Below, piece by piece: positions 3,203 through 11,007 of a DNA stretch of 13,805 nt (position 1 is its first letter; each line of letters opens with the position of its first letter). Both the position numbers and the translations under genes were made by a program. The notes beneath the pieces are model-generated. The model searched no databases and was not told where the DNA came from. It was given only the letters and a program-made list of their open reading frames with translations. Source of the DNA: Octopus sinensis (Eukaryota); NCBI RefSeq assembly GCF_006345805.1, contig NW_021825954.1, forward strand, positions 1 to 13,805. Reading direction: 5' to 3'.

Positions 3203-3637
3203 GGCGCAGGAGTGGCTGTGTATAGGAGCAGGAGTGGCTGTGTGGTAAGTAGCTTGCTAACCAACCACATGGTTCCGGGTTCAGTCCCACTGCGTAGCAT
3301 CTTGGGCAAGTGTCTTCTGCTATAGCCCCGGGCCGACCAATGCCTTGTGAGTGGATTGTGTAGACGGAAACTGAAAGAAGCCCGTCGTATATATATGTAT
3401 ATATATATATATATATGTGTGTGGTATGTGTTTGTTGTGTCTGTGTTTGTCGCCCTAGCATTGCTTGACAACCGATGCTGGTGTGCTTACGTCCCCGTCA
3501 CTTAGCGGTTCGGCAAAGAGACCGATAGAATAAGTACTGGGCTTACAAAGAATAAGTCCCGGGTCGATTTGCTCGACTAAAGGCGGTGCTCCAGCATGGC
3601 CACAGTCAAAATGACTGAAACAAGTAAAAGAAAAAGA

Positions 3638-3700: not shown

Positions 3701-4660
3701 AACTGTCGTATGTCCAAATTTGGCCAAATTCATTTTTTCAATATTTAATTTTCCTTGCAATAACCGGTTCTTTTGCTCAAGCATCTTTTGGTCAAGTTCT
3801 TTTGCTCAAGCATCTTTTGGCCAAGTTCTTTTGCTCAAGCATCTTTTGGTCAAGTTCTTTTGCTCAAGCATCTTTTGGTCAAGTTCTTTTGCTCAAGCAT
3901 CTTTTGGCCAAGTTCTTTTGCTCAAGCATCTTTTGGTCAAGTTCTTTTGCTCAAGCATCTTTTGGTCAAGTTCTTTTGCTCAAGCATCTTTTGGTCAAGT
4001 TCTTTTGCTCAAGCATCTTTTGGTCAAGTTCTTTTGCTCAAGCATCTTTTGGCCAACTTCTTTTGCTCAAGCATCTTTTGGTCAAGTTCTTTTGCTCAAG
4101 CATCTTTTGGTCAAGTTCTTTTGCTCAAGCATCTTTTGGTCAAGTTCTTTTGCTCAAGCATCTTTTGGCCAAGTTCTTTTGCTCAAGCATCTTTTGGTCA
4201 AGTTCTTTTGCTCAAGCATCTTTTGGTCAAGTTCTTTTGCTCAAGCATCTTTTGGTCAAGTTCTTTTGCTCAAGCATCTTTTGGTCAAGTTCTTTTGCTC
4301 AAGCATCTTTTGGCCAAGTTCTTTTGCTCAAGCATCTTTTGGTCAAGTTCTTTTGCTCAAGCATCTTTTGGTCAAGTTCTTTCGGTCAAGCATCATTGCA
4401 TCTCCAGCTTCCTCAGATGAAAATTCTGAAAGTGTTGTACAAAGTTTTTGCATTTTTGAAAAGTGTAGTAAGCCTTACATACGACAGTTTTGAAAAAAAC
4501 TTTTTTGACTGAAAATATCATACATGCATGGACTTACGATTTTATGCACCCAACAAAGTATTATTTTTGAGCTGAAACTGTTGATAACGTAAATAGAAAT
4601 GGAATGGTGAAACTATTTTTTCGTTTTCTGAAAAAGCAACGTTTTGGACTTACGACAGTT
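3701..4660. mobile_element. Putative non-autonomous DNA transposon bounded by 18-bp (sub)terminal inverted repeats
   Basis: AACTGTCGTATGTCCAAA (3701-3718) vs TTTGGACTTACGACAGTT (4643-4660) is a 17/18 inverted match. Extra motif copies lie at 4477-4489 and 4529-4539. Confidence 0.6.
3767..4394. repeat. 29-bp minisatellite, 21 full units plus a partial unit (GTTCTTTTGCTCAAGCATCTTTTGGTCAA)
   Basis: Direct reading. Units are near-identical, with a GGCC variant in units 2, 5, 10, 14 and 19. Confidence 0.97.
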
Positions 4661-4834
4661 TTGTATAATAATTCAGTCTTCCGTCGATAGAAACCATTTG
4701 ATGCGATCCTCAGGCATGATTCTGCCGACCAGCTTCATTGTGTGATGTCATATTAACACATGGTGCATCGTGTGATGTCGCACTGCCACGTGTTGCGTCT
4801 TTGTTTTGTAGTGTTTCTTCCGTTCGTATATTTT

Positions 4835-5059: not shown

Positions 5060-6062
5060 CTCGATGAGTGACATAGAGATGGTCTGGAAGAAGGCAATAA
5101 AACTAATGGTGGTATGACAGATGGGCAAAAGGAAATCTACGACAGAATAAAGGCAAGGCTACAGGAAAACGATAGCGACACTTTTTGCAACCTTAAAATG
5201 GTGGATCGGTGGAAATTGAAGCAAGAAATGAAAAATGTGAATGAAATTCTGAAATACATCAGAACAAACAACATCACAGAAACAAATAATTTGATCCAGG
5301 CTGCAAGTATTGTTGTAGCAGAAAATGTGGGTGTTAATGTCAAGAAAAAGAAATATAATGGGTGTGACAAAAGAAAAAAAGAATACAGGTGGGGTTAGAT
5401 ATGCTCTCAAAGGACAGTTATGTGTTGGACCGAAAAGAGGAGGGAGAGCTTAAAACCGAACAAAAGGACAGGGTACTGAACAAGAAATATGATATTGAAA
5501 GAAAGGGCCTGAAAATAGTAGCGGAGGAAATGAAAAAGCGCCTCGTTGCATGGAAAGCAAAAATAGTAAGATGCGACCAAATAATGAAGGGTTATCACCA
5601 GAGTAGGTTATTCAGAGTAGATCAGAATAGATTCTACAAAGAAATAAGTGGAGAGTGTACAGACGAAAAGTTGATACCAGATAACATTGAAAGTCAAAGG
5701 TTTGGGAGTTACATTTGGAGCAAAACAAGGAGCACAAGAAGGATGCTGAATGGTTGCAAGAACTGAAACAAACAGTAGTCTGTCTAAAAGGGAAGTGAAG
5801 GATATCAGGAGAAAAATGGGCAACTGGAAGGCCTCGGGACCAGATGGATTTCAAGGCTACTGTTTCAAAAGATTTGGTGAATGTCATGCACGAATAGCTG
5901 CACAACTCAACATCTTGTTAAATGCCGACCAAGTAACCAGAGTGGTTGACAATCCGTAGGTCAGTGCTGTGCTTTAAATACATCGGGAAAGGCAATACGG
6001 TAGACAATTACAGGTCGATATCCTGCTTGCCACTTATGTGGAAATTATTGACTGGAGTCAAT
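5060..6062 (+). mobile_element. Decayed non-LTR retrotransposon ORF fragment (pre-RT region plus RT domains 0-1), R4/Dong-like
   Basis: Consecutive frameshifted ORFs give ITETNNLIQAASIVVAENVG, QSRLFRVDQNRFYKEI, MGNWKASGPDGFQGY.FKRF and [23 protein letters not shown] (the KAPGPDG and NYRPISCL RT motifs). Truncated before YxDD. Clade assignment is from remembered motif similarity. Confidence 0.85.
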
Positions 6063-7151: not shown

Positions 7152-7557
7152 TTGTAAGGGAGAACACGATTTGGGTGTACTAGCAGGCTTCAGAAAGGTT
7201 TTTGACCAAAGAAAGAAAAATGTGTTTATAGTATTATATTTTATAGAATTCTGTATTATAGGGTACTGAGAGAAGAGTAACGAGATAGAAGAATAAAAGA
7301 TTCTGCTGTTTCGGAAACAATGTGATTGATGGAAATTGTAGAAAGTTGGTTGATCTCCTGAAGATAATGGACAAATTTTCCTCAAATTTACTCCCTTCTA
7401 ACGTTTGAATAACGAAACGATACGTGAGATTAAGATAGTCTACATAGCCTTAGAGAGAGAGAAAAAAAAGAAAAAAACAATCAAGCAACAGAATGTGCCA
7501 AGATAACGGGGGGTTTTGCATGTGGTTGTTCCAGGTGCATGAAAAAAATAGCAGCCA

Positions 7558-7864: not shown

Positions 7865-8228
7865 GGCGCTGGAGTGGCTGTGTGGTAAGTAGCTTGCTTA
7901 CCAACTGCACGGTTCCGGGTTCAGTCGCACTGCGTGGCACCTTGGGCAAGTGTCTTCTACTATAGCCTGGAGCCGACTAAAGCCTTGTGAGTGGATTTGG
8001 TAGACTGAAACTGAAAGAAGTTCGTCGTATATATGTATATATATATATATGTATGTATGTGTATATATGTATATGTTTGTATGTCTATGTTTCTCCCCCC
8101 CAACATCGCTCGACAAACGACGCTGGTGTGTTTACGTCCCCGTAACATAGCGGTTCGGCAAAAGAGACCGATAGAATAAGTACTAGGCTTACAAAGAATA
8201 AGTCCTGGGGTCGCTTTGTCCGATTAAA
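7865..8228 (+). mobile_element. tRNA-derived SINE, family A copy 4 (3' end lost or diverged)
   Basis: Colinear with copy 3 up to ..GGGGTCGCTTTGTCCGATTAAA. Preceded by (TA)n. Confidence 0.92.
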
Positions 8229-9090: not shown

Positions 9091-9299
9091 TTAAACTGTC
9101 CTACTGAAATCAAGCAGTGAACAAATAGATAAAATAAGACATATGTAGTGCCGTGGATGTTCCAATGAAGAAAATCACAGTTAACTTTTGAATATGGACA
9201 ACAGGCAAAGGAGAGTTTGCTAATAGCAGATAACGTAAGACTAACGGACTAAATTCTGCGACGAAGATGCTGATATTTTTCAATACGGATCGAACACAA

Positions 9300-9545
9300 A
9301 ACATTAACTTAGGCATTGACTCGTAGCGCTTTGAACGTCGAAAATATGATCACTTTTCAACATGATTCTCGATAATAAGTCCCTTTGATCTCTCAACTTT
9401 TCTAATGCTGCAGCGTTTGTTACCCCGTCTTATTCTGTCCAATCTACGAAAGGTCCACATTTCGAATGTATCTAACGTCTTTTCCATTCCTATGTACATT
9501 ATCCATGTTTCGGCCCCGTACAGGACAAGTCATAATATCACAGTT
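9300..9545 (-). mobile_element. Decayed RTE-like LINE ORF2 C-terminal fragment
   Basis: Minus-strand translation VLYGAETWIMYIGMEKTLDTFEMWTFRRLDRI matches the RTE post-RT motif LLYG.ETW....E..L..FEMW..RR.LRI. Confidence 0.8.
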
Positions 9546-9792
9546 TACAAGATTCCATTTTCGATGCAATGGCGTCCGTTTATAGAACGTATAACGCCTT
9601 TCACTCCTCACCTTGTTCTTTTTAACAAATTAGCTGTTCCACCTCATATGTTTTCATTGTTACCCCACTGATTAATGTATCTTTGTATCTTTCCGTAACT
9701 TTTTTTAGATTCCGTGGTGGCTAATGAAGAAATCTTTTTTGCTTAGTTTTAGGCCGAACAACTCATTCAAGATAGAATCATACGATCTCAAT

Positions 9793-10124: not shown

Positions 10125-10300
10125 ATATATATGTAATGATATATATATATATATATATAGATTAATATATATATATATATATACATAATATAATATATAT
10201 ATATATTATATATATATATATAATATAATATATATATATATATTATATTCATATATATATATATATATATATATTAATATATTATATATATATATATATA
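10125..10300. repeat. Imperfect (TA)n microsatellite
   Basis: Direct reading. Confidence 0.95.
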
Positions 10301-10434
10301 AAAGTTCAGCAAAAATTTAGATTCGAATGAATATGGTACATAAGTTAGATGAACCAGAATTTTGAATGGTGTTATCCATAAAAATCCATGCGGTGATTAT
10401 AATCAAAATAAGCAACAAAATAACTTTGGTAATT

Positions 10435-10520
10435 TGGTATGATCGTTTCGTACTACATTATTTTATTTAATGTTGTAAGCATTACAACAGTTTTAAAATG
10501 CTGAGCACTCATCAGCCATT
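10435..10520 (-). ncRNA. Type I hammerhead ribozyme motif (minus strand)
   Basis: Minus strand: aaTGG-CTGATGA-GTGCT...AGTAC-GAAAC-GATC-ATA-CCA. Stem II is intact and extended by the TGTTGTAA/TTACAACA hairpin. There is a G>A change at the cleavage triplet. Confidence 0.75.
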
Positions 10521-10787
10521 ATTAGAGGTTTTCCATTAATACGTAATTTTCATATCAAGTGATAACCTTATATAGAAGACAGATATAGAGACAAAGATGT
10601 GGATTTAAATTTAAGAACATTTAAGGTAGTGGAGTTTATCAACTGACTGACTAATAGTCAGTTGCTCTGAACTACTATAATGTTCTGAGAAGAATGGACA
10701 AATGAAAGGGGACAACAAAGATTGTCTATTTATAGAAATAGGGGTGAAATAGATGTCAAAGTTCCATATAAAGAAAAACCTCTATCA

Positions 10788-10873
10788 ATGGCTGATGACT
10801 GCACAGTATTTTAAAACTGTTGTAATGCTTACAACATTTAATAAAATGATGTAGTACGAAACGATCGTACCAT
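10788..10873 (+). ncRNA. Type I hammerhead ribozyme motif (plus strand)
   Basis: ATGG-CTGATGA (10792-10798)-cTGCA...TGTAGTAC-GAAAC (10858-10862)-GATC-GTA-CCAT. Stem I, the palindromic stem III and the GUA site are intact. The first stem II pair is C-C. Confidence 0.78.
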
Positions 10874-11007
10874 GTTACCAAAGTTATTCTTGTTGCTTAT
10901 TTTGATAATATATATATATATGTACATATATTCATACACACACATACATACACACATATATATATATAGTTGGAATTTACAAACAATGGTATATAAATAT
11001 ATATACA

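Follow-up and report, generated by a model that had tools for sequence, protein, structure and literature searches.

Avsunviroidae and other viroid-like RNAs are circular RNAs that replicate without a DNA form, and the hammerhead ribozymes of their two polarities are different sequences. Hammerhead pairs on opposite strands are already known in Penelope-like elements (PLEs): as described by Cervera and de la Pena 2014 (PMC4209133), dual minimal hammerheads in metazoan PLE fragments lie on opposite strands (~100-700 bp apart in Schistosoma), have a palindromic helix III and display a low activity that depends on dimers. Retrozymes, as outlined in bioRxiv 10.64898/2026.07.22.740005, consist of head-to-tail tandem units, in which two hammerheads on the same strand release a monomer. 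Among PLEs with a C-terminal endonuclease, Craig et al. 2021 (PMC8557442) described the motifs of the Hydra clade, and the same account of PLE insertions mentions an adjacent inverted 5'-truncated copy and a one-ended tail. According to PMC11167929, a Penelope-like protein, predicted to be dimeric, cuts both strands of AT-rich DNA and extends them from two reverse transcriptase (RT) start sites, one at each end of the tail, and the hammerhead is protein-assisted and dispensable for insertion.

The window analyzed here is an entire 13.8-kb unplaced contig, rich in microsatellites, from the 2.7-Gb octopus genome. It very probably carries a single insertion composed of two 5'-truncated Penelope-like 3' ends positioned head to head in a (TA)n microsatellite, likely the outcome of one abortive retrotransposition and likely decaying since. 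As found, the element is an ordinary, documented by-product of Penelope-like retrotransposition. The features of the locus are:

10125..10300, no strand: left-hand part of the (TA)n microsatellite targeted by the insertion (TRF period 2, 91.5 copies); (TA)n abuts 97 of 104 family 3' ends
10302..10776, minus strand: main copy, a 5'-truncated 3' end (3' UTR/pLTR) of a Penelope-like retrotransposon with its 3' end at 10302; 88-91% identity and collinear with long copies L031, L032, L043 and L044, which extend ~1 kb to the GIY-YIG stop codon
10302..10401, minus strand: optional ~100-nt 3' tail, on the left arm only; family 3' ends fall into two classes, 54 with and 50 without the tail (n=104)
10435..10518, minus strand: type I hammerhead with broken stem III pair C15.2-A16.2, triplet AUA (descriptor search, family comparison)
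10614..10686, no strand: imperfect central hairpin; its skeleton is family 3' UTR sequence, with two extra pairs nearly private to the window copy (A10619-T10681 paired in 2/59 and C10647-G10657 in 1/58 other copies)
10775..10776, no strand: head-to-head junction where both 5'-truncated copies meet with an overlap of 2 nt; the genome contains this junction once (<=2 mismatches allowed)
10775..10906, plus strand: inverted short copy of the same 3' end, stopping at the tail-less 3' site (family comparison)
10788..10873, plus strand: type I hammerhead with triplet GUA (nominal cut after 10869), in which the pair closing stem II, C10.1-C11.1, is broken (descriptor search, family comparison)
10907..10921, no strand: (TA)n, right half of the insertion target (sequence)

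A first-pass annotation had described a foldback at 10402..10906 with two inverted arms of ~131 bp. The arms are indeed there (10402-10532 and 10775-10906) and differ at 11 of 132 aligned columns, namely, by five full mismatches, four G-U pairs on the plus strand, one G-U pair on the minus strand and one gap; an ungapped alignment (10419-10538/10769-10888) gives 90%. Compensatory changes between the arms are absent, and four of the five transition differences yield G-U on the plus strand, a count too small to test. The outer limits need correction, because the element starts at 10302, its left arm bearing an extra ~100-nt family tail beyond 10402. The main copy reads in the minus direction, its sense strand running from 10776 down to 10302, and a second, shorter 3' end on plus makes up the right arm. 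Folding of 10402-10906 produced, as anticipated, one rod (−231 kcal/mol, z −22), which is explained by the inverted repeat alone, since any 130-bp inverted repeat would do likewise. The left flank, used to look for an allele lacking the insertion, matched elsewhere only in an 80-nt repeat.

Each arm had been proposed to contain a type I hammerhead. A descriptor search on both strands (CUGANGA followed by GAAAC) found three places in the window, two of them inside the arms, at 10792 (+) and 10515 (−). Both motifs follow the order stem I, CUGAUGA, stem II region, GAAAC, GAUC, triplet, stem I: CUGAUGA lies at 10792-10798 (+) and 10515-10509 (−), each with a 59-nt stem II region, GAAAC and loop GAUC, and the cleavage triplets are GUA on plus (cut after 10869) and AUA on minus. 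The motifs are real, but each has a broken pair flanking the core: C10.1 faces C11.1 on plus, and C15.2 faces A16.2 on minus. Four checks (core, 10.1-11.1 pair, 15.2-16.2 pair and stem I) are all passed by 62 of 97 family hammerheads, in a sample biased to intact cores, whereas each window hammerhead fails one. The recommended Rfam search did not recover them: hammerhead was absent among 61 window matches at E<=1, probably owing to the unusually long stem II. The third descriptor match, at 7358-7430 (+), was obtained with a loose descriptor, has no flanking stems visible by eye and is likely due to chance.

The motifs resemble the dual minimal hammerheads as presented in PMC4209133 in being type I, with a short stem I, a long stem II and a palindromic stem III/loop 3, and in their placement on opposite strands, at a distance of 292 nt in the octopus locus and of ~100-700 bp in Schistosoma. 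They differ in that the octopus stem II region, at 59 nt, is far above the 7-8 bp described there and in that no unpaired base is present between A9 and G10.1. The octopus family hammerhead occupies the sense strand between 25 and 120 nt from the tail-less 3' end, and therefore two arms will each contribute a motif, one per strand, once both exceed ~120 nt. Over 38 copies of the hammerhead fold, 96.3% of cells are paired and just one pair has changed on both sides; covariation does not exceed that in shuffles, and thus the structure is not proven by covariation. The parental hammerhead, a sense-strand pLTR motif, likely works as a dimer via the ACGAUCGU palindrome or else with the aid of a protein.

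When either strand is folded as a full-length transcript, the core bases have a predicted unpaired probability of <=0.03, and on both strands the antisense arm is transcribed first. Any read-through RNA is predicted to form a ~130-bp duplex burying both hammerhead cores. With one cut site per strand, no unit-length monomer or circle can be released, and a plus-strand cut after 10869 would merely trim the RNA end. The locus resembles animal non-LTR retrozymes (PMC7229834; bioRxiv 10.64898/2026.07.22.740005) in being non-coding, PLE-derived and equipped with a type I hammerhead; unlike in retrozymes, its units are joined head to head, which gives each strand a single hammerhead, and no tandem unit is present. 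The nearest approach to a retrozyme-like tandem within the family was observed at one of three loci (L055, L056 and L057) where family 3' ends occur as direct repeats 274, 687 and 893 nt apart, respectively: in L055, short repeated units are joined to upstream sequence. What the foldback has in common with Avsunviroidae and viroid-like RNAs is the presence of hammerhead motifs in both polarities together with a rod-like fold; it differs in consisting of one sequence duplicated in inverted orientation, in single copy, in chromosomal DNA.

A connection to the pLTR hammerheads of PLEs, drawn in the first-pass annotation, is borne out by genomic comparison, the arms being the 3' end of an element encoding RT and a GIY-YIG nuclease; the same comparison does not support the proposal of a non-autonomous ribozyme retroelement, because the sequence belongs to an autonomous one. 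Most of the 40 best-scoring genomic places match only positions 1-375 of the query and then continue into common family sequence. Long copies extend ~1 kb further to the stop codon of the GIY-YIG nuclease and then into the RT. The layout is illustrated by L034, with a pLTR (4412-4801), RT with YRDD and DKT, GIY-YIG, 3' UTR and 3' pLTR (9277-9653), broken up by other repeats, stops and frameshifts. All parent copies read are broken, and Pfam matches of the parent fragments (RVT_1, E=0.0048; GIY-YIG, E=0.0075) are both under the gathering score; we infer that RT and the C-terminal GIY-YIG nuclease shared a single ORF in the parent. The pLTR repeats are direct in L034 and inverted in 21 loci, and 5' truncation points differ among family copies. 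The genome contains about 2,000 family hammerheads: with <=3 mismatches allowed, a 22-mer spanning the core matches at 2,047 places and a control at 2. One family copy (L045-L047; G000:C28, 14.56-14.59 Mb) is repeated with its flanks at least six times with a ~3.25-kb period, forming a segmental tandem array, and the hammerhead cores are damaged in all of its scored copies.

Judged by most of the motifs of the clade, the family may be assigned to Hydra, a call that rests on motifs. DKT is found instead of DKG (PADKTG in L034, one copy); the CxCX5C linker reads CNCRIRSKC in five of the six copies where the linker was found, L034 having Y for the last C; the GIY-YIG core has one C between VIY and YF[GSV], hence no cysteine pair, and the CCHH finger is absent; CQLC/CELC..E and N..CIH surround the conserved E and N of the nuclease in most copies read. 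These traits parallel the Hydra clade as characterized in PMC8557442, including RT followed by C-terminal GIY-YIG, DKT, the CxCX5C linker, the lack of a cysteine pair inside the GIY-YIG core and CxxC and CxH around the conserved E and N, and so do the hammerhead near the 3' end, the (TA)n targets, the inverted 5'-truncated copy and the one-ended tail. Differences concern the tail, which is ~100 nt in the octopus family versus 30-40 bp in the PLE description of that paper, the ~1.1-kb 3' UTR, the element seemingly longer than the quoted 'generally <3 kb', and the RWK position in the N-terminal region, which reads RWI (RIRWI) in the single octopus copy read. The Neptune clade, suggested by the cysteine linker, was considered and dropped in favor of Hydra on the motif description in PMC8557442, the supplements of which may already list the octopus family.

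Is the head-to-head arrangement a conserved unit, as the proposed viroid-like rod would be? The window junction has one genomic match (<=2 mismatches), compared with 65 for normal read-through at the same point. We took a position-ordered sample, the first 42 exact hits in genome order, which represent 37 loci, with ~2.7 kb of 5' flank for 30 of them. Head-to-head pairs, defined by two outward 3' ends, account for 10 of these loci, spanning 257-973 nt, whereas a second outward 3' end is missing in the other 27; arm lengths differ in all 10 pairs, and the six loci with a hammerhead in both arms each have their own junction. One-armed copies and variable inversion points, the pattern that the first-pass annotation itself had named as refuting a conserved ambisense rod in favor of an ordinary inverted pLTR, are thus what the family shows. 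As the sample favors two-armed loci, which have two chances of a hit, a share of about one insertion in 10 is a fair reading. Arm lengths likewise differ in 11 further pairs among 39 loci chosen by likeness or as pairs. Duplicated loci (L009, L010, L013, L014, L017, L003, L011, L018, L019, L030 and L048) were removed before counting, and L031 served as the reference. Across 18 junctions, the two copies overlap by 0-4 nt or are separated by a gap of 1-11 nt, with 2 nt of overlap in the window. In some other pairs (L008, L027), the arms agree at up to 98-99%, and both arms of a pair share private letters, indicating that they come from one source element. In 20 of 21 pairs, one arm carries the tail and the other lacks it. 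The nearest look-alike, L035, has a junction ~20 nt off, a damaged core and an axis roughly on the hairpin. An ancient palindrome within the family was also considered and rejected, because the sequence past 10776 in normal copies is, by eye, unlike the arm.

The spacer between the arms had been regarded as self-complementary around a hairpin at 10640-10664 lying nearly on the symmetry axis. Both the hairpin and the AGAACATT/AATGTTCT helix are present and centred on the axis (10652-10654), and the central helices consist mostly of invariant family letters. The self-complementarity is nevertheless weak: the spacer fold has z −2.3 on the plus strand (3/200 shuffles equally good) and −1.6 on the minus strand (14/200), while the matching 230 nt in 59 other family copies, with mean z of +0.30 and +0.53, fold no better than shuffles. 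In a comparison of 60 copies with 20 shuffles per copy, the window spacer comes first in self-complementarity on either strand (z about −2.0, the runners-up having −1.2 and −1.4), a ranking to be read with the caveat that the window was chosen for its rod-like look. Selection for a spacer rod received no significant signal from rare letters that create pairs, which number 6/10 in the window copy and 95/255 elsewhere (P=0.12).

The simplest account of these observations would involve two cDNAs primed on opposite strands, one per start site. The structure of the ends suggests that the element protein would nick both strands of a (TA)n target and that each nick would prime one cDNA, the first beginning at the tail-end start site and its partner ~100 nt further in, at the tail-less site. 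Copying RNA from a single source element, the two cDNAs would then proceed inward and abort early, having extended ~375 and ~132 nt beyond the tail-less site, before being end-joined over the 2-nt overlap. The one-tail rule is consistent with priming of each target strand by a single protein dimer that uses both RT start sites known in vitro. The ~100-nt tail allows both start sites to be told apart easily, which gives the family a modest mechanistic value. The 8% difference between the arms and the damaged cores point to neutral decay thereafter.

A lesser rival, which we consider unlikely, is that a single cDNA folded on the weak 3' UTR hairpin, annealed its 3' end near 10532 and copied itself, placing the axis on the hairpin. 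The coincidence of the axis (10654) with the hairpin centre speaks for such copying, as do the L035 junction about 20 nt away and the private variants common to both arms of a pair. However, L035 was found through its likeness to the window layout itself, arm reaches place the axes of all 10 position-ordered pairs more than 50 nt from the hairpin, the overlap is just 2 nt, and nothing in self-copying alone would make it end 100 nt short, at the tail-less site also used by single-arm copies. Far less plausible is the generation of the inverted arm from a single-arm copy by rearrangement after insertion or by an assembly fold-back artefact. Although a 13.8-kb unplaced contig rich in microsatellites might invite that suspicion, the 11 differences between the arms exclude a read-level palindrome, the right arm stops at the family tail-less site followed by (TA)n, and the layout with one tail recurs in 20 of 21 pairs, most of them on large contigs.

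It is equally hard to credit that the 505-nt foldback is a non-autonomous element moving as a unit and making a viroid-like rod RNA that self-cleaves in both polarities. A hammerhead motif on each strand, the full-length rod fold and the top rank of the window spacer among 60 copies are what such a unit would show, yet its junction occurs once in the genome, the differences between its arms include no compensatory change, both of its hammerheads are damaged when most family copies scored pass all checks, and their cores are predicted to be fully paired. Moreover, the single cleavage site per strand precludes excision of a unit-length monomer, the spacer fold is not common to the 59 other copies, and the excess of pair-creating letters is not significant. 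We attach a similarly slight probability to the broader notion that head-to-head Penelope ends bearing hammerheads, of which the genome likely contains at least 100, are a standing source of ambisense rod RNAs, with the window copy transcribed and either copied or selected as a rod, thereby constituting a genomic precursor of viroid-like RNA. The stretch occurs in no sequencing run recorded as RNA. Contigs of four sequencing runs (three guessed to be RNA) that match 10539-10906 are family copies reading on normally at 10776; they carry family letters at the private sites of the window copy and none joins across the window junction, these contigs informing on presence only. Caution is called for when genomes are scanned for rod-like structures with ambisense hammerhead pairs, because fossils of this kind will be among the hits.

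The window contains a second foldback, with 159-nt arms (624-782 and 1142-1300) that are 96% complementary and lie 359 nt apart. A descriptor search detected no hammerhead motif in it. Its arms resemble an abundant short repeat also found at 1458-1597, 3240-3379 and 7880-8019, and part of its spacer matches another old repeat at 73-80%. Further along, a 29-nt unit is repeated in tandem 21.7 times at positions 3767-4394, with 97% matches, and broken reading frames at 5072-5766 on the plus strand resemble, by eye, a decayed protein of a non-LTR retrotransposon.
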